Positions 33,549 through 46,810 of a stretch of 46,810 nt of DNA are shown here, in pieces (position 1 is the first letter of the stretch; every line of letters starts with the position of its first letter). The translations under genes were made by a program, and so were the position numbers. The stretch is taken from contig JBFXGO010000014.1 of NCBI GenBank assembly GCA_050239825.1, forward strand, positions 1 through 46,810, written 5' to 3'. This stretch comes from a bacterium (lineage in GTDB: Bacteria > Hydrothermota > 32-111). The notes under the pieces were generated by a model. That model saw only the letters and a list, made by a program, of their open reading frames with translations. It was not told the DNA's origin and made no database searches.

Positions 33549-35097
33549 TGTTCCTCCTGAGTTTTATGCTGAAAATTGTCTCCCCGGGCTTTGAGGAGTA
33601 TTCTATCTCTCCCTTGTGGTCGTCCTTTATCAGTTTATAAACTATTGCAAGCCCCAGTCCTGTCCCCTTTCTTTTAGATGTATTGAAGGGCTGAAATATT
33701 CTGCTTTTTATCTTCTCGTCAATTCCGCTTCCATTGTCCTTTACTTTTATAAAATCAAAATGTTCATCTCTTTGATAAAATACTGATACTGTAGGTTTTT
33801 CAATATTTTCAACAGCATCAAGAGCATTTGAGATAAGATTCACCAACACTTCCTTCAGTTTATATTTATCTCCGTAAACTACTGCATTGAGAGGAATGCC
33901 TGATGCATCAACAATAGCCGCCCTCTCATCAACAGATGTAATCTCCTTTAAAAGTTCATTCAAATTCACCTGTTCCTGAACAATTGGCCTTGTGCGGGAA
34001 AACTCCAAAAAATCAGTGACAAGCTCGTTCAGTCTCTCTATCTCTTCAAGAACTATTTTAAACATCGGATGATTTTTTTTGTCCTCCGGCTCCTCATCAA
34101 TAAGAATTTTTGCCGCTCCCTTTATATTTGACATGGGATTCCTTATTTCATGCGCTATAGAAGCGGCGAGTTCGCCGATAACCTCCATCTTCTCTTTTGT
34201 AATAAGTTTATTTTCATATTCTATTATCTCCGTGATATCCGATATGACAATTATATAAAAATCCTCATACTTGCCTTTATAGGTTATTTTTTCGCTTGTC
34301 ATCGTGTAGTATTCGCTGTCAATCTGAAATTGATGCCTCTTCTGTGAAATGATGTGGGGCAGGAGTTCTGCGTCAATATCTCTGAAGCTCTTGTTGGTTT
34401 CGATTTTTTTAAAAAGCTCTTTGCTCTTTCTGTTGAAATCAGTAATAACCAGAGAGTCATTGAGTATGATTATCGATAGAGGAATATGCTCAATTATGTC
34501 TTTTATCCTCAGCCTAATCTTGGCTATCTCTTCAGAACTTCTAACCTGAAGCCTCTCCGACAAAAATCCGCTTATTGCCGCTGTTAAAAAGAATGAGAGC
34601 ACATATATGAATGCTTTGACAATTATATTTTCAAGCATGATATCGCTATAGACGGGATTTCTATAAGGAGAAATAATGAAACCGAAATACTCGCCGAAAA
34701 GAATGAGGGAGAATCCTACAGTTGACATTATTGCAGTCGCAAACCCTCCCTTTGCAAAAAGAAAGAATGACCCTGTTACAATATTCACAAAATAGAGTAT
34801 TTCAAAAATACTATTTGTTCCGCCCGTAAAATAAAGTATAGCAAAGATGAGAAGATTGTCGAACATAATCTGAACATAGTAGTAAAACGGCTTGTTTAAG
34901 CCCTTATACAACACAAAATAAAAAATGACCGACATCACTATCGATAGGATGAATATTACTATATGGGGAACTAAATTAACCTCAATGCCTCTTATGAGAG
35001 TCAGAATTCCCATAAGAGGTATTGAGAATACAATTACAAGTCTAAGTACTAAGTACCATCTGTACCTGACGCCGATTTTTGCAAACATTCTCGTCAC
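33541..35097 (-). CDS. pilS: Membrane sensor histidine kinase
   Basis: Multi-TM N-terminus with FTGGTNS, AHEIRNP, NLISNA, DNGSG, GTGLGL. Confidence 0.85.
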   Translation of the reverse strand: MTRMFAKIGVRYRWYLVLRLVIVFSIPLMGILTLIRGIEVNLVPHIVIFILSIVMSVIFYFVLYKGLNKPFYYYVQIMFDNLLIFAILYFTGGTNSIFEILYFVNIVTGSFFLFAKGGFATAIMSTVGFSLILFGEYFGFIISPYRNPVYSDIMLENIIVKAFIYVLSFFLTAAISGFLSERLQVRSSEEIAKIRLRIKDIIEHIPLSIIILNDSLVITDFNRKSKELFKKIETNKSFRDIDAELLPHIISQKRHQFQIDSEYYTMTSEKITYKGKYEDFYIIVISDITEIIEYENKLITKEKMEVIGELAASIAHEIRNPMSNIKGAAKILIDEEPEDKKNHPMFKIVLEEIERLNELVTDFLEFSRTRPIVQEQVNLNELLKEITSVDERAAIVDASGIPLNAVVYGDKYKLKEVLVNLISNALDAVENIEKPTVSVFYQRDEHFDFIKVKDNGSGIDEKIKSRIFQPFNTSKRKGTGLGLAIVYKLIKDDHKGEIEYSSKPGETIFSIKLRRNID

Positions 35098-36296
35098 ATG
35101 ACAAGATTGACCATTGAGAACATCGGCAGGTACATTGAAACCATCAGTCCGCCTACGACGGTTGCCAACAGAACCATTATTATCGGTTCAAGAGCGCTCA
35201 TTAGAGTTGTCACAGCATCATCTACTTCAGAATCGTAGAAATCTGCGACCTTGGTAAGCATCGATTCAAGTCCTCCCGTCTCTTCTCCGATTCGTATCAT
35301 CTGCACAACCATTGAAGGAAAGACCTTCTCTTTTGAAAGGGGCAGTGATATGGATTCTCCCTCCTGAATGGCAGTCCTTGCCTTTAGAATCGCCGCCTCT
35401 ATGATTGCATTTCCGGAGGTCTTTGCTGTTGTTTCAAGCGCAGAGATAATATTGACTCCTGATGAGAGAAGAGTGGCTAAAGTTCTTGTAAATCTCGCCA
35501 CAGCCTGTTTCTTCTGCAAATCTCCCATAACCGGGATATTCAAAATAAGATTGTCAAAGAAGATTCTTCCCTGCGGAGTCTTCTTGTATGAGTTTGTGGC
35601 TGTAACTATTATTGCCACGACAATCAGTATGAAAATTATATTGTGTTGAAGAAATTCCGAGAGCCACATTACTATTCTCGTGGGAAGCGGGAGCGTGCCG
35701 CCGAAGGAGGTGAACATGCTCGCGAATACAGGAATAACAAAAAGAAGCATGACTACCACAGCGACAACCATGACAACACTTATTACCACGGGATAAACCA
35801 TTGCGCCTTTGATTTTTCTGGTCAATGCTTCAGAGACTTCAAGATATGTGGCGAGTCTGGACAATATTGTCTCCAATGCTCCTCCCTCTTCACCGGCCTT
35901 CACCATGTTGACATATAGTTCCGGGAATGCCCTCTTGTGTTTTCTCATGGCATCTGCGAGAGTGGTTCCTGCTTCAACATCATTTATCATTTCAAGTATT
36001 ATCTTTTTGAAGGATTTGTCCTCCGCCTGCTCGGCTAATATTCTGAGACACTGCATCAGAGGAAGACCGGCCGCTATCATTGTAGAAAACTGTCTTGTAA
36101 AGAGAGATATTGTCTTTGTTTTTATTCCGCCGCCGCCAATATTGATCTCTATATTAGCCCAGTCGCGGTTTATTGATAAAACCTGCATTCCCTGCGATTT
36201 TAAAATTTGCCTCGCTTTTTCTATGTCGGGAGCTTCAATTGTGCCTTCCTTGCTCTTTCCGTCCTTGGCTTTTGCTTTGTATTTGAACTGTGCCAT
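35094..36296 (-). CDS. pilC: Type IV pilus platform protein
   Basis: FTRQFSTMIAAGLPL, AGEEGG, AMVYP, GEETG, LEP, YLPMF. Confidence 0.93.
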   Translation of the reverse strand: MAQFKYKAKAKDGKSKEGTIEAPDIEKARQILKSQGMQVLSINRDWANIEINIGGGGIKTKTISLFTRQFSTMIAAGLPLMQCLRILAEQAEDKSFKKIILEMINDVEAGTTLADAMRKHKRAFPELYVNMVKAGEEGGALETILSRLATYLEVSEALTRKIKGAMVYPVVISVVMVVAVVVMLLFVIPVFASMFTSFGGTLPLPTRIVMWLSEFLQHNIIFILIVVAIIVTATNSYKKTPQGRIFFDNLILNIPVMGDLQKKQAVARFTRTLATLLSSGVNIISALETTAKTSGNAIIEAAILKARTAIQEGESISLPLSKEKVFPSMVVQMIRIGEETGGLESMLTKVADFYDSEVDDAVTTLMSALEPIIMVLLATVVGGLMVSMYLPMFSMVNLVM

Positions 36297-36311
36297 ATTT
36301 CCCCCTTGTTA

Positions 36312-37397
36312 TTAATTACCGTTTGCTTTTCTGAACTCAGCGAGCATTTTCTCAAGTTCTTCGGGTTCTCTGGAGTTTGCCATCATATTGTCCAAGCTTA
36401 TATGCCCTGCCTTAAATATTTCGAAAAGCGCCTGATTCATCGTCTGCATGCCATACTTCTTTCCTGCCTGAATTAGCGAGTATATCTGATGAACTTTATC
36501 GTCTCTTATCAGAGCTTTAATAGCCGGAGTTCCCGTCAGAATTTCCATTGCCATTGCTCTGCCGCCTCTCTGTTTGGGAATGAGGGTCTGTGTCATTATT
36601 CCTATTATGACGAAAGCAAGCTGAGCTCTCACCTGCCCCTGCTGAGCTTCGGGAAAAACATCTATAATGCGGTTTATCGACTCTGCCGCTGAATTCGTGT
36701 GCAGTGTGGCAAATGTTAAATGCCCTGTCTCGGAAATTGTCAAAGCGGCTTGAATTGTTTCAAGGTCTCTCATTTCTCCTATCATTACAATGTCAGGGTC
36801 CTGTCTGAGAGCATACTTTAATGCGCTCGTAAATGATTTGGTGTCTGAACCAACCTGACGCTGATTTACAAGGCATCGCTTATGTTTAAATAAAAATTCT
36901 ATCGGGTCCTCAACAGTGATAATATGGCTTCTCCTCTCCTGATTTATCTGGTCTATCATCGAGGCAAGAGTTGTGGATTTGCCCGAGCCGGTGGGACCTG
37001 TCACAAGTATAAGCCCCTTGGGCCTCTTTGCCAATTCTGCTATTACAGGAGGAAGACCGAGATCTTTATAGCTCTTAATCTCAAATGGAATCTGACGAAG
37101 CACCATGGCGACATTGCCTCTCTGGCGAAAGACATTGCCTCTGAACCTTGACAGGTTGGGCACTCCGATTGAAAGGTCAAGCTCCCAATTCTGTTCAAAT
37201 GTTTTTTTCTGCTGGTCATTTAGCAGAGAATAAGCGAGATTCTCCGTGTCTTGGGGTTTCAGCACATCATAGTTCATCGGCTGAATCTCTCCGTCTATTC
37301 TGATACTCGGGGGAACTCCGGGCGTGAGATGAAGATCCGAAGCCTTTCTCTCCACCATCTCTGTCAATAACTGTACAATCGATGGTAATGGCGACAT
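36312..37397 (-). CDS. pilT: Type IV pilus retraction ATPase
   Basis: ASDLHL, GPTGSGKSTT, ALRQDPD, AIKALIRDDK, GMQTMNQ. Confidence 0.95.
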   Translation of the reverse strand: MSPLPSIVQLLTEMVERKASDLHLTPGVPPSIRIDGEIQPMNYDVLKPQDTENLAYSLLNDQQKKTFEQNWELDLSIGVPNLSRFRGNVFRQRGNVAMVLRQIPFEIKSYKDLGLPPVIAELAKRPKGLILVTGPTGSGKSTTLASMIDQINQERRSHIITVEDPIEFLFKHKRCLVNQRQVGSDTKSFTSALKYALRQDPDIVMIGEMRDLETIQAALTISETGHLTFATLHTNSAAESINRIIDVFPEAQQGQVRAQLAFVIIGIMTQTLIPKQRGGRAMAMEILTGTPAIKALIRDDKVHQIYSLIQAGKKYGMQTMNQALFEIFKAGHISLDNMMANSREPEELEKMLAEFRKANGN

Positions 37398-37405
37398 TTT
37401 TCCTC

Positions 37406-39175
37406 CTATTCCATAACAGCTGTTTCTCTTATAACTTCATCAAGGGTCGTTAGACCATTTTTTATCTTCATAATTGCATCTTCTCGAAGAGTATTCATAC
37501 CCTCTTTTCTCGCCTGCTCCCGAAGGTCCGATGTGCTTGACCTCTTTAAAATCATATCTCGGAGCTCCATTGAAATAGGCATCACTTCTGTGACGCAGAG
37601 ACGCCCTTTGTAACCTTTTCCCTTGCACTTGTCGCACCCGTCACCCTTTTCAAAAACCTGATGCCCCTTTAAAAGTATGGGATTGATGTCAAACTGTTTT
37701 AAGGTCTCTTCATCATACACAATCGGCTTTCTGCAGTTTTCACAGACCTTCCTTAACAATCTTTGCGCCTGAATGAGGTTCAAAGAAGCAGATACGAGGA
37801 ATGGCTCAATGCCCATATCAATAAGACGGTTCACTGTGGAGGGCGCATCGTTAGTGTGTATCGTTGAAACCACGAGATGTCCTGTAAGAGCGGCTCTGAT
37901 CGCTATCTCGGCTGTCTCGGAATCTCTTATCTCTCCAACAAGAATAACATTCGGCGATTGGCGGAGAAATGCTCTTAGAGCCACGGAGAAATTGAATCCT
38001 ATGTCCGAATTCATCTGAACCTGATTTATTCCATACAGATTGTATTCAATCGGGTCTTCAGCAGTCATTATCTGAATTTCAGGAGTGTTTAAAGACGACA
38101 ATGCCGAATAGAGTGTGGTGGATTTTCCTGAGCCGGTAGGACCCGTGACAAGAACAATTCCGTAGGGTTTGTGAATTGATGCCTGAAATTTTTCAAGAGC
38201 TTCAGGCTCAAATCCGAGTTTTGTCATCTCAAGCTGGAGAGAGGATTTGTCAAGTATTCTCATGACAACCTTCTCGCCGAACAGAACAGGTATTATCGAA
38301 ACGCGCAGGTCTATCTGTTTGTCCATCACCTTCAGTCTTATTCTTCCGTCCTGCGGAATGTTGTGAACTGCAATGTCCAATTCTGCCAGCAGTTTCAATC
38401 TTGAAATTATTCCGGCTTTAAGTTCATAAGGCGGTCTTATCAGCTCTGAGAGCACACCGTCAATTCTAATACGAACCTTGATATGTTTCTCAAATGGTTC
38501 AATGTGTATATCAGATGCATTAAGCTCAACTGCCTTCGTGAAAATATAATTTACCACCTTAACGACTGGCTTATCGTCAGCGGCATTGACTCCGTCGATT
38601 ACTGTCTCCTTGGAATCAAATTCCGCCATTACTTCAAGGTCATCACTACCGCCGGAAAAATCATCTTCATCTATATCTATGTCTATTTCCGCTTCATCCT
38701 CGTCAATGTCAATGTCAATGTCGTCTTCCGAATCAAACTCCGATACTTGGGTCTGCGCTTCTCTATACTTGCCGAGAGCTTTCTGAAGCGATGTCTCGGT
38801 TGTCACAACGGGTATTACATCAAGACCTGTTTTAAATTTTACATCATCAATTGCATTTAAATTGGCAGGATTTATCATCGCAATAAAAAGCATGTTTCCC
38901 ATCTTCTTATACGGTATGAGTCCGTGTTTGTTCGCCAACTCTTCGGAGACAAGATTTAAAACCTGTATGGGTGTCTCCTCTTTGTCAATCTGAATGAAAT
39001 CTGTCTTAAAATATTTGGCAAGAAATTTTGCCACCTTGTCTTCTGTTGAAAAACCGAGAGAGACCATTGTTTTGATGAATGTATCTCCGCTCACTTTCTG
39101 TTCTTCAAATATCTTCTTTACCTGTTCCCTGTTTAGAAGACCCGACATGACGAACAGATTCGCTAATGTCTGCAT
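37406..39175 (-). CDS. pilB: Type IV pilus assembly ATPase, paralogue 2
   Basis: ASDIHIEP, PQDGR, GPTGSGKST, AEDPIE, GEIRD, CENC...CDKC. Confidence 0.92.
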   Translation of the reverse strand: MQTLANLFVMSGLLNREQVKKIFEEQKVSGDTFIKTMVSLGFSTEDKVAKFLAKYFKTDFIQIDKEETPIQVLNLVSEELANKHGLIPYKKMGNMLFIAMINPANLNAIDDVKFKTGLDVIPVVTTETSLQKALGKYREAQTQVSEFDSEDDIDIDIDEDEAEIDIDIDEDDFSGGSDDLEVMAEFDSKETVIDGVNAADDKPVVKVVNYIFTKAVELNASDIHIEPFEKHIKVRIRIDGVLSELIRPPYELKAGIISRLKLLAELDIAVHNIPQDGRIRLKVMDKQIDLRVSIIPVLFGEKVVMRILDKSSLQLEMTKLGFEPEALEKFQASIHKPYGIVLVTGPTGSGKSTTLYSALSSLNTPEIQIMTAEDPIEYNLYGINQVQMNSDIGFNFSVALRAFLRQSPNVILVGEIRDSETAEIAIRAALTGHLVVSTIHTNDAPSTVNRLIDMGIEPFLVSASLNLIQAQRLLRKVCENCRKPIVYDEETLKQFDINPILLKGHQVFEKGDGCDKCKGKGYKGRLCVTEVMPISMELRDMILKRSSTSDLREQARKEGMNTLREDAIMKIKNGLTTLDEVIRETAVME

Positions 39176-39176
39176 A

Positions 39177-40892
39177 TTATCTCAGCCCCGTCTCTTTAAC
39201 AGCTTCAAGAATATCCACTATCCCCTGATTCATCTTTCTAACCGCTATCTGTCTCAGTGTTATCATGCCATTCTGAACTGCTACTGCCTCAAGGTCATCT
39301 GTCGGAAGTTTTTTCATAATCGCTCTTCTTATCTCAGGCGACATCTCCATCACTTCAAAAAGTCCGACCATTCCCTTATATCCTGTATTTCCGCATTTTT
39401 CACAGCCTCGTCCTTTCATTAAAGTATTGCCTTTGAAGTCCTCCGGTTTGAACCCGAGCCGTATCAGCTCCTCATCGCTCTTTACATCCGGCACTTTGCA
39501 GTTGGTGCAGATCCTCCTCACAAGACGCTGTGATACTATGCAGTTGATTGTGGACGAGATAAGAAAGGGCTCCACTCCCATGTTTATCAAACGGGTTATG
39601 GTGCCTGCCGATGAATTGGTGTGTACAGACGACAGAACAAGGTGACCGGTCAATGAAGCTCTAATGGCTATCTCCGCAGTATCCTTGTCTCTGACCTCTC
39701 CCACCATTATCACATTCGGATCCTGTCTGAGGTAGGCTCTGAGAGCAGATGCGAATGTCAAACCCACGGCTTCCTGTACCTGAAGCTGATTAATTCCATC
39801 CAAGGAAAACTCTATCGGGTCCTCAGCCGTTGTGATATTGAGCTCCGGGGAGCTTATCTTTTCTATGCAGGTGTAAAGGGTTGTGGTCTTTCCGCATCCT
39901 GTGGGACCTGTTATAAGAATTATACCCACAGGATTTCTGAGAGATTTCATAAGAATTCTTTCGAGGTCTTCCTCGAATCCCAATTTGTCAAATTCAAAAT
40001 CCACCTTCTCTCTGTCCAGAATTCTCATCGCGACTTTCTCTCCATACATTGTGGGACATGTCGCAACGCGGATATCAATTGGTTTGTCATGAACTCTTAC
40101 TTTTATTCTTCCGTCCTGCGGAAGACGAGTCTCCTGCAGACGCATTCTGCCCATAACCTTTACTCTTGAAACCAATGCTTTTCTGTATTGCCAGCGGGGA
40201 GGTCTTTCAATAGGCCTCAATACACCATCTATTCTAAATCGTATTCTCAATGATTGATCGTATGGCTCAATATGAATATCTGAAGCGCCCTGCTCTACGG
40301 CAGATGTGATAAGACTGTTTACTATTTTTACTATGGGTCCGCTTTCAACATTAGCCGCAAGGTCGCTTATTGCATCATCTGCCTGTTCATTTTCATCTTT
40401 TTTTATAACCTCAATATCCTCATCCTGAATTTCATCAATATCCACAATATCATCAAGATGAACTTCAACATTTGCATAATATTTTTCTATGAAACTATCA
40501 ACAGAATTCTCAGTCGCAACAAGAGGAATTATATTGTGTGCAGTAGTAAATTTCAAATCCTCCAAAGCAAAAATATCCGCAGGATTTGTCATTGCAAGAT
40601 AAATGCTTCTACCTTCTCGTCTCACGGGGAATACTGAATATTTTTTTGCCAGATTTGCAGGAATGACTTGCAGAAGAGATTCATCTATTTGAATTTCATT
40701 AAGATTGATGGATTGCACCTTGTATTGGCGGGATAAAAATTCAACAAGTTTGTTTTCAGATGTAAAACCAAGCTCTACTAAGATAGAACCCAATTTTTTA
40801 GTAGTGCCTTTTTGGGCTTTCAATGCCTCATTTAGCTGTTCATTATTTATCAGCCCGGCATTGATGAGCATGTTTCCAAGTTTTTCCGACAT
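39177..40892 (-). CDS. pilB: Type IV pilus assembly ATPase, paralogue 1, with MshEN-like N-terminus
   Basis: KLGNMLINAGLI, ASDIHIEP, GPTGCGKT, RQDPN, CTNC...CEKC. Confidence 0.92.
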   Translation of the reverse strand: MSEKLGNMLINAGLINNEQLNEALKAQKGTTKKLGSILVELGFTSENKLVEFLSRQYKVQSINLNEIQIDESLLQVIPANLAKKYSVFPVRREGRSIYLAMTNPADIFALEDLKFTTAHNIIPLVATENSVDSFIEKYYANVEVHLDDIVDIDEIQDEDIEVIKKDENEQADDAISDLAANVESGPIVKIVNSLITSAVEQGASDIHIEPYDQSLRIRFRIDGVLRPIERPPRWQYRKALVSRVKVMGRMRLQETRLPQDGRIKVRVHDKPIDIRVATCPTMYGEKVAMRILDREKVDFEFDKLGFEEDLERILMKSLRNPVGIILITGPTGCGKTTTLYTCIEKISSPELNITTAEDPIEFSLDGINQLQVQEAVGLTFASALRAYLRQDPNVIMVGEVRDKDTAEIAIRASLTGHLVLSSVHTNSSAGTITRLINMGVEPFLISSTINCIVSQRLVRRICTNCKVPDVKSDEELIRLGFKPEDFKGNTLMKGRGCEKCGNTGYKGMVGLFEVMEMSPEIRRAIMKKLPTDDLEAVAVQNGMITLRQIAVRKMNQGIVDILEAVKETGLR

Positions 40893-40986: not shown

Positions 40987-42640
40987 AATATAGGGAAGTT
41001 TAGTAAATGACTTGCCTTTACAACTCCGACGAAAAATTCCAGTGCTGCCCCCCAAGTCAGCCTTGAGCCGTGAGCCATGTGCCATGAGCTTAATGCGGGG
41101 AGCTGAGTAAATAACTTGCCTTTACAGTTCCGAATGAGAAGCCTGTCCACAGCGCTCGTCTGTCCAATGCTTCTCATGAGGACAATCAAGTCAATGACTT
41201 ATTGAAAGTAAAAGCTTCAAGTCGGCGAGGACGCTCCGCGAAGACGCCCATCAAGTGGGCGACCCCTTGCTACGCTATCCCATCTTGATAAAGCGGCGAA
41301 GCGGAGTGTGTGAGCCGACGCTACGCCCGCGTGTAGCCACTAAGTCAGCCCTGAGCCTTGAGCCATGTGCCTTGAGCTTAATACGGAGAGTTGAGTAAAT
41401 AACTTGCCTTTACAGTTCCGAGGAAAAATTCCAGTGCATCTCCGCACTGCTATTCAATGTTTTTCCGAGGACAATCAATTAAATAACTTATTGAGAGTGA
41501 AAGCTACAAGTCGGCGAGGACGCTCCGCGCAGACGCCCATCAAGTGGTTCTCCCCTTGCTCCGCTATCCCATCTTGATAAAGCGGCGAAGCGGAGTGTGT
41601 GAGCCGACGCTAAGCCCGCCAGCAGCCCCCCAAGTCAGCCTTGAGCCGTGAGCCTTGAGCTTAATACGGAGAGATGATTAAGATTTTGTCTTTACAATAA
41701 TCTTCACAAAGTTCTGGTGCAACCCGAGGTCTCTATCATGTGCGTTAGCGCACATTTCACCCCAGCCAATGCTTTGTGAAGATTCAATCAATTAAATAAC
41801 TTATTGAAAGTGAAAGCTACAAGTCGGCGAGGACGCTCCGCGCAGACGCCCATCAAGTGGTTCTCCCCTTGCTCCGCTATCCCATCTTGATAAAGCGGCG
41901 AAGCGGAGTGTGTGAGCTGACGCTACGCCCGCCAGCAGACCCCAAGTCAGCCCTGAGCCGTGTGCCTTGTGCCATGAGCTTAATGCGGGGAGCTGAGTAA
42001 ATAACTTGCCTTTACAGTTCCGAGGAAAAATTCCAGTGCATCTCCGCATTTAACACAATACTCCTGATGATTAAATAATTTTATCTTTACAGTAATCTTC
42101 ACAAAGTTCTGGTGCAACCCGATACCTCTATCATGTGCGTTCGCGCACATTACACCCTCGCCAATGCTTTGTGAAGATTCAATCAATTAAATAACTTATT
42201 GAAAGTGAAAGCTTCAAGTCGGCGAGGACGCTCCGCGAAGACGCCCATCAAGTGGGCGACTCCATGCTACGCTATCCCATCTTGATATAGCGGCGAAGCG
42301 GAGTGTGTGAGCTGACGCTACGCTATTCAGCAGCCCCCAAGTCAGCCTTGAGCCGTGAGCCTTGTGCCATGAGCATAATACGGGGAGTTGATTAATATTT
42401 ATTCTTTTCAGTAATCTTCACAAAGTTCTGGTGCAACCCGATACCTCTATCATGTGCGTTCGCGCACATTACACCCTCGCCAATGCTTTGTGAAGATTTA
42501 ATCAATTAAATAACTTATTGATACTCGAAAGCTTCAAGTCGGCGAGGACGCTCCGCGAAGACGCCCATCAAGTGGGCGACTCCATGCTACGCTATCCCAT
42601 CTTGATATAGCGGCGAAGCGGAGTGTGTGAGCTGACGCTT
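40987..42640. repeat. Modular structured repeat array 1 (5 core hairpins)
   Basis: Core GTCGGCGAGGACGCTCCGCG at 41221, 41510, 41823, 42218, 42538; periods 289, 313, 395, 320 bp. Confidence 0.95.
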
Positions 42641-42701
42641 GGCTTACCTGCCGCCACCAAACAATCTTCAATTATCAATAAGCAATAAACAATAAACTGA
42701 T

Positions 42702-42745
42702 AGACCCTTCACGATAGTCATAAACACAGAGGCGTTCAGGGTGAC
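42702..42745. repeat. Solo 44-bp REP-like element, same family as the GIY-YIG flanks
   Basis: AGACCCTTCACGATAG...GCGTTCAGGGTGAC aligns without gaps to 46371-46414. Confidence 0.8.
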
Positions 42746-42780
42746 TGAATTGATTAAGTAAATAGCGGTTAGTAAATTTT

Positions 42781-43080
42781 GATTAAAAACGGAGGATGAG
42801 GGACTCAGTCCTCGGTTTTGTTCCTGCATTACTCCGCAATGCTGGGGACATTCCTTCGGTGTGTCCCCACAAAAACTCCGCGCTTCCGCCGCTTCTTCTC
42901 ACGCAGGTGAGCGCGGCTGTCAGCGTTCGAGTCCCATAAGATTAAAAACGGAGGATGAGGGACTCAGTCCTCGGTTTTGTTCCTGCATTACTCCGCAATG
43001 CAGACAAAACTCTCAACTCCGCGCTTCCGCCGCTTCTTCTCACGCAGGTGAGCGCGGCTGTCAGCGTTCGAGTCCCATAA
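42781..43080 (-). repeat. Two tandem tRNA-3'-end-linked elements (159 and 141 bp)
   Basis: GATTAAAAACGGAGGATGAGGGACTC at 42781, 42940 and 43081; the last copy is the real tRNA end. Confidence 0.92.
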
Positions 43081-43089
43081 GATTAAAAA

Positions 43090-43172
43090 CGGAGGATGAG
43101 GGACTCGAACCCCCAAGGGTGTGAACCCGTCGGATTTCAAATCCGATGCCTTACCAGTTAGACTAATCCTCC
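43090..43172 (-). tRNA. tRNA-Ser(TGA)
   Basis: GGAGGAT/ATCCTCC-G acceptor, TCGGA-TTTGAAA-TCCGA anticodon arm, long variable arm, GGGGG-TTCGAGT-CCCTC T arm; CCA not encoded. Confidence 0.93.
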
Positions 43173-43195
43173 GTATTTCAAAAAGCAGAAATGAA

Positions 43196-43223
43196 ATTAT
43201 ATAAGAAATTCAATTCTTGTCAA
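43196..43223 (-). promoter_or_regulatory. Sigma-70 promoter of tRNA-Ser(TGA)
   Basis: TTGACA-16-TATAAT. Confidence 0.8.
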
Positions 43224-43275
43224 TAAAAAATTAAGATGCAAAAATAACAATTAATCTATAACTGGCAGGTATCCT

Positions 43276-43839
43276 TCAACTTTTTAACTTTCTTGAATTT
43301 ATATCAGAATGATTGAAAAGAATTGCAGAACCGGTAAAGATAGTCACAAAAAATGAATTGAGAATGAATATCTTGAAAATGTCAATAAATGTCCCTGATT
43401 CACCTGCAAGAGGTTGTCCGATTATAAATGCCATTAATGTAACAATTGCCTGCACCGCTGCAGTAACAAACATTGCGTATTTCATGCCTCGTGCATTAAA
43501 TTGGGCAATTAAAAGACCTATGAATTCAACTAATATGACCAATAAATATATTGCATTGATTGGATTATTCTCATCTCCGATTATTCCTACAGCAAGGTTT
43601 ATCCAAATGAGAAGAAGTGTGCCCGCAACTGCTAAACCCACGGCCGAGCGATACACCACATCTGTCGCCTTAGTGCACAAGATTTCATAAGCCAATCCAG
43701 AACAGAACAGCAGACCGCCCGCGGCAATAAAATCGAATAATGTCCAATCAACTCCTTCTACAAAACGCATAGCTACGAGAGGTACAAGCAAAATTGATAC
43801 TGTAACTATACCTATGATGATTATGTTTTTTCTTCTCAT
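43276..43839 (-). CDS. Multi-pass membrane protein of unknown function
   Basis: About 6 hydrophobic segments, PLVAMRF..GVDWTLFDF, WINLAVGIIG; AGGAG RBS. Confidence 0.75.
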   Translation of the reverse strand: MRRKNIIIIGIVTVSILLVPLVAMRFVEGVDWTLFDFIAAGGLLFCSGLAYEILCTKATDVVYRSAVGLAVAGTLLLIWINLAVGIIGDENNPINAIYLLVILVEFIGLLIAQFNARGMKYAMFVTAAVQAIVTLMAFIIGQPLAGESGTFIDIFKIFILNSFFVTIFTGSAILFNHSDINSRKLKS

Positions 43840-43890
43840 TCGCTTTTCTCCTTTCTTACATAATAAACATTACATATTTTTGACTGAAAT

Positions 43891-45205
43891 TGAGCCGACG
43901 CTACGCCCGCCAGCAGACCCCAAGTCAGCCCTGAGCCGTGAGCCGTGTGCCGTGAGCTTAATGCGGGGAGCTGATTAATATTTTGTCTTTTCAATTCCGA
44001 ATGAGAAGCCTGTCCACAGCGCTCGTCTGTCCAATGCTTCTCATGAGGACAATCAAGTCAATGACTTATTGAAAGTGAAAGCTACAAGTCGGCGAGGACG
44101 CTCCGCGAAGACGCCCATCAAGTGGCCGACCCCTTGCTACGCTATCCCATCTTGATAAAGCGGCGAAGCGGAGTGTGTGAGCCGACGCTACACCCGCCAG
44201 CAGCCCCCCCAAATCAGCCCTGAGCCTTGTGCCGTGTGCCATGAGCATAATACGGGGAGCTGAGTAAATGACTTGCCTTTACAGTTCCGAGGAAAAATTC
44301 CAGTGCATCTCCGCACTGCTATTCGATGTTTTTCCGAGGACAATCAAGTCAATGACTTATTGAAAGTGAAAGCTACAAGTCGGCGAGGACGCTCCGCGAA
44401 GACGCCCATCAAGTGGCCGACCCCTTGCTACGCTATCCCATCTTGATAAAGCGGCGAAGCGGAGTGTGTGAGCCGACGCTACACCCGCCAGCAGCCCCCC
44501 CAAATCAGCCCTGAGCCTTGTGCCGTGTGCCATGAGCATAATACGGGGAGCTGAGTAAATGACTTGCCTTTACAGTTCCGAGGAAAAATTCCAGTGCATC
44601 TCCGCACTGCTATTCGATGTTTTTCCGAGGACAATCAAGTCAATGACTTATTGAAAGTGAAAGCTACAAGTCGGCGAGGACGCTCCGCGAAGACGCCCAT
44701 CAAGTGGTTCTCCCCTTGCTCCGCTAACCCATCTTGATAAAGCGGCGAAGCGGAGTGTGCGAGCCGACGCTAAGCCCGCGTGCAGCCCCCCCCAAATCAG
44801 CCTTGAGCCGTGAGCCTTGTGCCATGAGCATAATACGGGGAGCTGAGTAAATAACTTGCCTTTACAGTTCCGAGGAAAAATTCCAGTGCATCTCCGCATT
44901 TAACACAATACTCCTGATGATTAAATAATTTTATCTTTACAGTAATCTTCACAAAGTTCTGGTGCAACCCGATACCTCTATCATGTGCGTTCGCGCACAT
45001 TACACCCTCGCCAATGTGGGGACATTCCTACGGTGTGTCCCCACTGCAACAATCAATTAAATAACTTATTGAAAGTGAAAGCTCAAAGTCGGCGAGGACG
45101 CTCCGCGCAGACGCCCATCAAGTGGTTGACCCCTTGCTCCGCTAACCCATCTTGATAAAGCGGCGAAGCGGAGTGTGCGAGCCGACGCTAAGCCCGCGTG
45201 CAGCC
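43891..45205. repeat. Modular structured repeat array 2 (4 core hairpins plus one truncated)
   Basis: Cores at 44088, 44379, 44670, 45088; periods 291, 291, 418 bp. Confidence 0.95.
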
Positions 45206-45222
45206 AATGAACATTTTATCAA

Positions 45223-45414
45223 GATTAAAATCGGAGAGGCTGGGATTCAGTCATCGGTTTTGTTCCTGCATTACTCCGCAATGCTGGGGACATTCCTACG
45301 GTGTGTCCCCACAAAAACTCCGCGCTTCCGCCGCTTATTCTCACGCAGGTGAGCGCGGCTGTCAGCGTTCGAATCCCTGGGGACATTCCTACGGTGTGTC
45401 CCCACTACAAAAAT
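45223..45414 (-). repeat. tRNA-3'-end-linked element at tRNA-Ser(CGA)
   Basis: CGGAGAGGCTGGGATTC (45232-45248) duplicates the tRNA 3' 17 nt; body nearly identical to 42807-42935. Confidence 0.92.
45378..45408 (-). repeat. GTAG-tagged REP-like hairpin (also at 42843-42870, 45016-45047, 45285-45312)
   Basis: TGGGGACATTCCT(A/T)CGGTGTGTCCCCAC occurs four times; the minus strand here reads GTAG-TGGGGACA...TGTCCCCA. Confidence 0.8.
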
Positions 45415-45502
45415 CGGAGAGGCTGGGATTCGAACCCAGGGTACCCGTAAGGATACTCCGCATTTCGAGTGCGGTGCCTTAAACCAACTCGACCACCTCT
45501 CC
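45415..45502 (-). tRNA. tRNA-Ser(CGA)
   Basis: GGAGAGG/CCTCTCC-G acceptor, CCGCA-CTCGAAA-TGCGG anticodon arm, long variable arm, CTGGG-TTCGAAT-CCCAG T arm; CCA not encoded. Confidence 0.95.
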
Positions 45503-45516
45503 AAAGAACTTTCACA

Positions 45517-45544
45517 ATTATATATAAAACAGATATGATTTCAA
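45517..45544 (-). promoter_or_regulatory. Sigma-70 promoter of tRNA-Ser(CGA)
   Basis: TTGAAA-16-TATAAT. Confidence 0.65.
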
Positions 45545-45545
45545 C

Positions 45546-46010
45546 CTATTTCTTTCTTGCTCTTATGAAAAATTCCCTCATCATTTCAGAGCTCTCTTTT
45601 TCAAGAATACCGCCCTCTACAAGAATATTATGATTCAAACCATTGAGTTTCTGAATGTCAATGAGTGAAACGCAGCCTCCACAATTTTTTTCTCTGCATC
45701 CGAAAACAACTCTCTTTACGCGTGCCAGCATTGAAGCTGAAATGCACATAAGACAAGGTTCGACTGTTGAATACAGAGTGCAATTATTCAGCCTCCAGTC
45801 ACCCTCTCTCTTCTGCGCTTTTTTAATGGCTTTTATCTCAGCATGTGAAAATGTTGATTTATCCTTCTCCATAGTGTTATGCGCCCTTGCAATAATCTTT
45901 CCGTCTTTTACTATAACACAACCTATGGGCACTTCATTCTTTTCAAATGCCTTCTCCGCCTCTTTCAAAGCAGATCTCATATATTTTTCGTCAATATTAA
46001 TTTTTTTCAT
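45546..46010 (-). CDS. tadA: tRNA adenosine(34) deaminase
   Basis: EVPIGCVIV, HAEI, WRL, VEPCLMC, LNH. Confidence 0.93.
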   Translation of the reverse strand: MKKINIDEKYMRSALKEAEKAFEKNEVPIGCVIVKDGKIIARAHNTMEKDKSTFSHAEIKAIKKAQKREGDWRLNNCTLYSTVEPCLMCISASMLARVKRVVFGCREKNCGGCVSLIDIQKLNGLNHNILVEGGILEKESSEMMREFFIRARKK

Positions 46011-46036
46011 ATTTCATTTTAAATAATTTTTTATAT

Positions 46037-46414
46037 GTCATTCTGACCGGCTCTATTCACTGTTCTCGTGTGAAGAATCTATCAATCTGTTATTTCTTTC
46101 CACTTGTCAATCCATTTTGGATTAATGCTGTTAATCAATCTCTCTTTCTTTTCTCTTTTCCATCCTTTCAATGTTTTCTCTCTTTTAATCGCATTTTCAA
46201 TATCATCATAACACTCATAATAAATTAGAAGACAAGCCTTATACCTCTCTGCGAAACCTTCAATATATTTTTGCTTATGTTCATATGTTCTTCTTACAAT
46301 GTCATTTGTAACACCAGTATAAAGGACTGTCTTGTTTTTGTTTGTAAGAATGTACACATAATACATTGATAGATCCTTCACTATAGACATAACCTCAGAA
46401 GCGTTCAGGATGAC
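46037..46414. mobile_element. Candidate GIY-YIG cassette bounded by 44-bp inverted REP-like elements (46037-46080 and 46371-46414)
   Basis: Left GTCATTCTGA-N24-TGAAGAATCT; right (reverse complement) GTCATCCTGA-N24-TGAAGGATCT. Confidence 0.6.
46082..46366 (-). CDS. Minimal stand-alone GIY-YIG nuclease
   Basis: YYVYIL..LYTGVTNDIVRRTYEHK..AIKREKTLKGWKREKK..NPKW; likely start at 46366. Confidence 0.9.
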   Translation of the reverse strand: MYYVYILTNKNKTVLYTGVTNDIVRRTYEHKQKYIEGFAERYKACLLIYYECYDDIENAIKREKTLKGWKREKKERLINSINPKWIDKWKEITD

Positions 46415-46424
46415 ATTACTATTT

Positions 46425-46810
46425 GGGACACTCCGTCACCTCTCTTGAATAGAAGCATGTTCCTGCCCGGTGAACGAACCCCTTCTTACCCGAAGGGACA
46501 CTCCGTCACCTCTCTTGAATAGAAGCATGTCCCTGCCCGGTGAACGAACCCCTTCTTACCCGAAGGGACACTCCGTCACCTCTCTTGAATAGAAGCATGT
46601 CCCTGCCCGGTGAACGAACCCCTTCTACGGGGTTGTGCTTCGCGCACGGCTTTCAGCCGCTTCGAGTCCCTCTATGTTAAAGAAAATGCGCCCGAAGGGA
46701 CACTCCGTCACCTCTCTGGAATAGAAGCATGTCCCTGCCCGGTGAGCGAACCCCTTCGACGGGGTTGTGCTTCGCACACGGCTTTCAGCCGCTTCGAGTC
46801 GCGCTATGTC
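46425..46810 (-). repeat. Tandem repeats (70, 70, 132 bp, then partial) carrying a probable tRNA-Arg 3' end
   Basis: GGGACACTCCGTCACC at 46425, 46495, 46565, 46697; TGCGCCCGAAGGGAC is the reverse complement of GTCCCTTCGGGCGCA. Confidence 0.85.

Follow-up and report, generated by a model that had tools for sequence, protein, structure and literature searches.

How does a short non-coding repeat come to carry, at both of its ends, sequence matched to the tRNA gene that it follows, and is it as RNA or as DNA that it acts? The question is raised by the window considered here (the whole stretch analysed, 46,810 nt, being contig C27 of a 2.1-Mb bacterial genome in 67 contigs, labelled G000), in which a hairpin-rich unit stands twice behind tRNA-Ser(TGA) and once behind tRNA-Ser(CGA). 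The unit is a distant, lineage-specific version of the tRNA-linked repeats (TLRs) of Escherichia coli. The simplest account is one of locus-specific frames whose bodies are exchanged at shared ends; we put at about even the chance that the unit, as a tRNA-linked repeat, is handled in the form of folded single-stranded DNA (ssDNA) and exchanged between tRNA loci.

The units and the tRNA bases that their ends follow

Each unit consists of an 11-nt antisense copy of the tRNA T-arm (the arm), a body of 100 or 118 nt and a 17-nt direct copy of the tRNA 3' end, the unit length being 111–129 nt. Leading away from tRNA-Ser(TGA), the order is a 13-nt spacer, arm, 100-nt body and copy, followed by spacer, arm, 118-nt body and copy; behind tRNA-Ser(CGA) there is a single unit with the 118-nt body. 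The tRNA genes were called with ARAGORN and Rfam, promoters and terminators were judged by pattern scan, and open reading frames overlapping the units were judged spurious. The features are as follows.

43196–43223, minus strand: sigma70-type promoter of tRNA-Ser(TGA), 12/12 consensus matches (pattern scan)
43090–43172, minus strand: tRNA-Ser(TGA), CCA not encoded (ARAGORN, Rfam)
43077–43089, minus strand: 13-nt spacer behind tRNA-Ser(TGA), without terminator hairpin
43066–43076, minus strand: unit 1 arm, antisense to tRNA positions 53–63, G59 type
42966–43065, minus strand: unit 1 body, 100-nt form, with two hairpin domains, of which the distal (42982–43004) has a C-GGA-G loop cap
42949–42965, minus strand: unit 1 direct copy, tRNA positions 57–73, with a spacer copy next
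42925–42935, minus strand: unit 2 arm
42807–42924, minus strand: unit 2 body, 118-nt form; the 27-nt GGGGACA hairpin that recurs genome-wide lies at 42843–42869
42781–42806, minus strand: unit 2 direct copy (42790–42806) and 9 nt of copied flank
45517–45544, minus strand: sigma70-type promoter of tRNA-Ser(CGA), 11/12 matches (pattern scan)
45415–45502, minus strand: tRNA-Ser(CGA), CCA not encoded (ARAGORN, Rfam)
45378–45414, minus strand: spacer behind tRNA-Ser(CGA), with a second GGGGACA hairpin (45378–45404) immediately ahead of the arm
45367–45377, minus strand: unit 3 arm, A59 type
45249–45366, minus strand: unit 3 body, 118-nt form, hairpin insert at 45285–45311
45232–45248, minus strand: unit 3 direct copy, positions 57–73 of tRNA-Ser(CGA)
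46419–46810, minus strand: distal part of an Arg array, same layout with a different body, its tRNA-Arg(ACG) lying at the end of contig C7

This arrangement bears out what a first-pass annotation of the DNA had noticed, namely a hairpin-rich body twice behind Ser(TGA) and once behind Ser(CGA), each distal end repeating the last 17 nt of its own tRNA; the copies are exact at all three units, and identity extends 5–13 nt into the flank. The body had also been called constant, which it is not: the long form has 31 nt, with the 27-nt GGGGACA hairpin, in place of 13 nt, and this hairpin occurs in 48 copies on 23 contigs of G000. The proximal inverted copy of the T-arm is present as described, its tailoring to the tRNA within the window amounting to one base, T-loop position 59. 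The match of the unit ends to the tRNA is beyond chance, with arm and copy scores of 11 and 17 against best values of 8 and 9 in 160 unit-free tRNA trailers of the bacterial family, although these controls were the trailers below the thresholds and their score ceiling is partly a matter of construction. A contig from another study, at a depth of about 2, matches 43000–43252 (body, arm and tRNA) without difference. By this independent contig the body–arm–tRNA junction at Ser(TGA) is genuine; the evidence covers the junction, the tandem copy number lying outside it.

Which tRNA bases the ends follow was read from a census of the family covering seven genomes and two single loci, with 264 tRNA records; 38 loci were flagged and 37 used, the Leu(TAA) locus of G008 being left out (arm not placeable). 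The arm agrees with the tRNA at base 59 in 37/37 loci, with all four bases represented, and at base 57 in 35/37, often where the direct copy lacks that base (an earlier tally by hand offsets gave 35/37 at both positions alike). These loci fall into 14 distinct classes in which kin are not independent, the choice of units depended in part on how well the arm matched, and arm positions were seeded by hand. Given this selection and the common history of kin, the cleaner test is a cross-taxon sample of 120 loci (among the matches listed) in which base 59 was left free. In that sample the tRNA T-arm forms the first half in 47 of the 120 loci, a direct copy lies downstream in 21 of 52 rows, from bacteria and archaea, and base 59 matches in 21/21 rows with a direct copy as against 14/31 without one.

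The direct copies are less regular. Among 30 scored family copies the start is at base 57 in six, all of the window's body type, and at bases 58–61 in the other 24. The break at TTC|GA proposed in the first-pass annotation is therefore uncertain, and the GA may belong to the body. Six tRNAs with A57 have a scored copy, in which C or G is seen; in five the arm base matches the tRNA and in the sixth row it disagrees. As five of six arms match A57 while no copy has A, the arm follows the intact gene.

Further evidence comes from terminator-bearing loci of three relatives (G003, G005 and G008), where arm pairing continues through the acceptor strand and into non-tRNA flank, so that in these sister genera the long arm and flank make up one long imperfect palindrome around the terminator. 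In the window the 11-nt arm seems to be a truncated version of this long arm. At three G005 loci (L314, L326 and L012) a second internal hairpin stem (AAGTCC or AATCC) also seems, by eye, to follow tRNA base 59, and these stems would permit alternative pairings with arm and copy.

These observations bear on the principal alternative to handling as ssDNA, which is that the unit is a functional small RNA cassette like RtT or RrB of E. coli, co-transcribed with the tRNA, closed by a stem between arm and copy and excised at the copied tRNA end, which would act as the signal for processing; the arm may, in addition, delay pre-tRNA folding. We regard this as possible though clearly the less probable of the two. 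An RNA of this kind does not readily explain why the arm follows base 57, absent from most direct copies, or its pairing with flank that would be lost from a processed RNA, and many family units sit behind a terminator-like hairpin. Under the ssDNA account, the frame of arm and direct copy would belong to the locus and predate the current body, the arm having arisen as a fold-back copy of the tRNA end that is long in the sister genera and was shortened to 11 nt in the window. The arm could be kept in T-loop register through pairing with the tRNA gene, either by template-switch correction, a known process at quasi-palindromes, or in the course of acting as a guide.

Spread and probable exchange of the bodies

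Searching the genome for further bodies had been set as a test in the first-pass annotation. A fourth full body lies behind tRNA-Ser(GGA) on contig C7, and no other was found in the G000 assembly beyond the four tRNA-Ser copies; 4/4 adjoin a tRNA-Ser with matching ends (two at Ser(TGA), one at Ser(CGA), and one plus a partial copy at Ser(GGA)). Six of 272 genomes of the phylum matched the body, three of them real and from one genus and three borderline at 21–26 nt, while a pattern search of metagenomes gave 25 matches, of which one, behind Ser(GGA), is real and 24 are due to chance. In a third study a variant of the body adjoins a tRNA end of CGA type. Wherever the neighbour of the window's body type is assembled, the adjoining tRNA or tRNA-end copy is always that of a tRNA-Ser.

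This constancy is what would be expected if a single tRNA-Ser locus had been duplicated, or if the copies were an artefact of assembly. Both are extremely improbable. Same-form bodies are 97% identical, whereas the three host tRNA-Ser genes share 62–68%, and orthologous tRNA-Ser genes in sister genera hold other bodies or none, from which it follows that the body spread among old loci; one duplication, named in the first-pass annotation as a competing account, cannot explain these figures. An artefact at the junction is contradicted by the matching independent contig, and the body is also present in further genomes and samples.

Both the sequence and the pairing of the body are conserved, its identity between four genomes or contigs being 76–95% against 33–47% at four-fold sites (synonymous reference: the gene after Ser(GGA), the G001 body compared being its TGA copy). 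Such conservation tells against the notion that the units have neither function nor enzyme and arose neutrally from replication slippage with fold-back at tRNA ends, the abundant repeat hairpins of the genome serving as decoration, as does the strand-specific occurrence of the loop motifs described below. The genome is indeed rich in repeats, with four motifs in 104, 64, 48 and 41 copies, and partial units and arrays occur; we nevertheless consider a neutral origin very unlikely.

Units of the same arm–body–copy layout, with other bodies, follow tRNA-Gln(CTG), -Arg(ACG), -Asn(GTT) and -Lys(CTT) in G000, and the last 390 bases of the window belong to the distal end of the Arg array. The Gln body of G005 is 76–78% identical to the Arg and Ser(CGA) bodies of that genome and 49–58% identical to the Gln bodies of three other genomes; bodies group by genome, not by tRNA. 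The Ser(TGA) unit of G003 terminates in a tRNA end of the Leu(TAA) type, the Leu(TAA) tRNA itself being unassembled in G003. Unrelated bodies replace each other at a single locus and tandem arrays contain broken units, neither of which is easily reconciled with an RNA cassette. The number of copies varies, and sites are empty at Arg(ACG) of G002 and at several Ser loci. Recombination at the ends that loci share may carry bodies from one locus to another, in which case the ends need no re-tailoring, and unequal exchange at the direct repeat may give rise to tandem copies. The family thus offers a natural experiment, since a given frame can hold different bodies, a given body occurs in more than one frame, and some sites are empty.

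A model built from 28 other units of the family (R1; two base pairs and nearly sequence-only) matches the Arg array at 31–46 bits, Arg units being part of its training set; on the window's body it matches over the arm only, at under 7 bits, and it failed to detect RtT of E. coli. It matches 8/151 genomes of the phylum, all within one family, and two matches on contigs without a tRNA are array continuations at contig ends. An inverted T-loop pattern applied across the phylum was noisy, many matches being adjacent tRNAs or chance.

Several smaller points concern these other units. The Ser(GGA) trailers L329 (G005) and L401 (G008) each contain two differing units in tandem, and G005 and G008 have the first halves interchanged at an internal GGGTTCGTC motif, a swap that circle excision and re-entry, or an older and longer array, would give. 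In alignment A1 the other family units share a conserved, apparently unpaired motif with the end CTATTCAAG, which is also found directly ahead of some arms, and they carry an internal T-arm-like GGGTT(C/T)G. At G000:C17:39075-39465, Arg(TCT)-Lys(CTT) occurs twice around an N gap, probably as a scaffolding duplicate.

Units are associated with one form of tRNA end: among the 34 free trailers of G000 they follow 7/8 ends reading TTCGARTCCC and 0/26 others, and over all genomes 25/36 and 12/163, respectively. Such a preference might be expected if tyrosine integrases acting at the T-loop had left the unit as a scar or minimal islet, or if it were a decoy att site that absorbs phages or islands. 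Islands integrated at tRNA genes by tyrosine integrases leave a displaced tRNA 3' fragment, and the unit resembles them in having a fragment that starts in or just after the T-loop; arm and copy could also fold into a duplex att-like site. It differs from them in lacking integrase and cargo and in its inverted arm, tandem copies and conserved, structured body, and conserved pairing and sequence argue against decay. Of the five integrase-family matches in G000 none is on the window's contig, C27, where there is no PF00589 match, and the one closest to any tRNA is a remnant that follows Leu(TAA), a tRNA without a unit. No island was seen to start at a direct copy in the first 330 nt of the trailers compared, and the copy starts are scattered over positions 57–61. 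An origin in integrase traffic is therefore unlikely, and the decoy idea put forward in the first-pass annotation finds no support here. Because the units mimic att scars, they can mislead island-finding software.

Folded DNA or processed RNA

There is evidence in the loops of the units as to the form in which they act. Loops of the type C-GN(N)A-G are present on the tRNA-sense strand in 8/8 copies of the window's body (shuffled mean 2.2, maximum 6), in 25/28 other family units and in 12/21 cross-taxon units (among the matches listed), the corresponding numbers for the antisense strand being 0, 1 and 4. They are not enriched in 159 unit-free trailers or in 30 arm-only rows (among the matches listed), and GNRA and UUCG loops show no sense-strand enrichment. 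Strict triloops number 25 in the family, against 1.1 after shuffling, and 10 against 0.6 in four E. coli RtT copies. In a review (PMC13037366), GCGNAGC and GCGNNAGC are described as very stable in DNA and their RNA counterparts as considerably less so. The loops are a hint that the unit acts as folded ssDNA, and they count against an RNA cassette, being of DNA mini-hairpin type and not GNRA or UUCG.

Some structural evidence speaks for RNA. Arm and direct copy form a closing stem of 8 bp with one compensatory change, and 6/29 predicted pairs have changes on both sides, in few independent sequences. RNAalifold on 28 diverse units returned two pairs only, because the alignment is poor at helices, and folding z-scores of sense versus antisense strand did not separate RNA from DNA. 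By two-dimensional energies, which exclude tertiary structure and modifications, pairing of the arm with the tRNA T-arm is favoured by 5–9 kcal/mol at full length and is about even when the transcript stops at the arm; invasion of the pre-tRNA T-arm is thus possible on this modelling. In RtT a tandem GA motif has covariation support (PMC7657543), a point in favour of RNA structure. The G-rich strand was noted for 6/7 unit-bearing tRNAs, a count that is uninformative as it has no control set.

A number of observations weigh against handling as ssDNA. In the strict test (perfect stem, triloop) the window's body scores 0/8, a G-T pair or a 4-nt loop having to be allowed, and the eight copies stem from just four genomes or contigs. 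The tRNA genes have strong promoters, and the pattern scan found no terminator between tRNA and unit at Ser(TGA) or Ser(CGA), so that the units are probably transcribed, as an RNA cassette requires. Conservation of the body far above that of synonymous sites fits a function for the host equally well, as does the occupation of largely the same tRNAs throughout the family. No mobilising enzyme linked to the unit was identified, and no circle or excision joint was seen in the assembled contigs examined. On the other side, in favour of ssDNA handling, Y1-HUH genes number 4–13 in eight genomes outside genus g5 and 0–2 in six genomes of g5, of which one was found to have units; the correlation is weak, over five genera, g5 having been censused less fully.

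The ssDNA and processed-RNA readings can both hold. The miniature tRNA-targeting element suggested in the first-pass annotation is favoured by the exchange of bodies, by empty sites and by the mini-hairpin signature; neither an enzyme nor a circle was found. For new insertions a likely helper would be a trans-acting enzyme that works on ssDNA hairpins, of Y1-HUH or Ssn type. G000 has four Y1 matches, at least three of them with visible terminal inverted repeats, and no Y1-HUH gene lies beside any of its four full bodies. Two of these genes (G000:C5:4741-5160 and G000:C56:11573-11950) begin about 12 nt from a tRNA 3' end, those of Ala(TGC) and Ser(GCT), with a GGGAC-headed inverted repeat at the start; in G003 and G005, Ser(GCT) has a tRNA-linked unit where G000 has the Y1-HUH gene. 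A bolder and rather doubtful proposal is that TLR-like units form a widespread, gene-less mobile class in bacteria and archaea that moves as folded ssDNA, the arm being a guide that reads, by base pairing, the target T-loop on the exposed strand and an HUH-type enzyme carrying out strand transfer in trans. If the guide reading were true, an altered arm would retarget insertion. Arm tracking of T-loop bases that are absent from the copy, together with DNA-type mini-hairpins on one strand, provide two testable signals for distinguishing an RNA cassette from an ssDNA element.

Known repeats and the surroundings of the units

TLRs were first described in 1978 and are defined by their position behind a tRNA or rRNA gene and a 3' end that repeats the last 18–19 bp of the gene; in E. 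coli there are 22 units at 10 loci, one to five per locus, and they are reported to have no known function save modest effects of RrA/B/F (PMC8144298). These three are transcribed, processed 3 nt beyond the repeat and bound by Hfq and CsrA (PMC8144298), which favours an RNA cassette. The present unit has the same position (all four full bodies in G000 lie directly behind a tRNA) and the same copy number (one to five per locus), and it ends in an exact copy, 17 nt long behind host genes without CCA, as compared with 18–19. The likeness extends across the E. coli TLRs (tyrT-tyrV/RtT, rttR, RF00391; RrA/B/F) in the place behind a tRNA gene and the copied 3' end, and to the tyrT copies in particular in the hairpin body, sense-strand C-GNA-G loops and inverted T-arm copy. 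The first-pass annotation had rightly pointed to tyrT as tandem repeats containing a tRNA end and had overlooked this inverted arm, which means that the layout itself is not new. In tyrT the arm is split by 7 nt ahead of the loop part, whereas here it is contiguous through the T-loop, and the host lies outside Enterobacteriales.

The RtT model RF00391 gave no match up to E 10 in 41000–46810, nor up to E 1 in five relative loci, while control copies from E. coli scored 133–138 bits (threshold 45 bits); Rfam as a whole found only tRNA above the gathering score in the window and no other relevant match by E-value. The literature covered, in partial texts and with Rudd 1999, the 1978–1994 reports and supplements outside its scope, contains no account of the inverted arm, of T-loop tracking or of TLR-like units outside enterobacteria, and the accessible parts of Geobacteraceae genome papers hold nothing on the unit layout. 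A mobilome preprint reports raised coverage of the rttR region and attributes signals at RNA genes to RNA/DNA hybrids, not circles. What is new here is the tracking of the T-loop by the arm, the grouping of bodies by genome, body conservation and the DNA-type mini-hairpin loops on the sense strand.

Similarities are also apparent with REP/REPIN and TIR repeats, gene-less ssDNA hairpin repeats with an enzyme in trans (PMC3733652, PMC6006769); these papers describe a GGGGWSAS motif (PMC3733652) and Y1-HUH classes (RAYT, TIRYT) that act on ssDNA hairpins (PMC6006769). The GGGGACAC end of the optional 27-nt insert fits GGGGWSAS. Unlike those repeats, the unit is confined to tRNA ends, has a low copy number (four), locus-specific ends and a 17-nt target copy, and flanks no transposase gene; only the 27-nt insert is dispersed.

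Ssn (SsnA) proteins are GIY-YIG ssDNA nucleases with flanking hairpin repeats (PMC11893778), and the window has a comparable gene at 46082–46390, between the Arg array and Ser(CGA), which encodes a single-domain GIY-YIG protein of 102 amino acids and has flanking inverted repeats. The flanking repeat, however, belongs to another family with 41 copies genome-wide, and no link between gene and unit was seen. The same gene stands directly after the empty Arg(ACG) site of G002.

Elsewhere in the window, positions 35094–40892 hold two tandem PilB-like ATPase genes, one PilT-like and one PilC-like gene, the first of them alone having been checked against Pfam, and a repeat-bounded open reading frame for 187 hydrophobic amino acids without Pfam match (43276–43839) lies between the two Ser loci. 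A large modular intergenic repeat forms arrays at 41500–42660 and 43890–45210; its 131-nt core has 104 copies, spread over 31 contigs, and the 27-nt hairpin has been swapped into this repeat as well. By eye, this modular repeat and the other tRNA-linked units of the family have the short motifs GTCGGC and ATCAAG in common.

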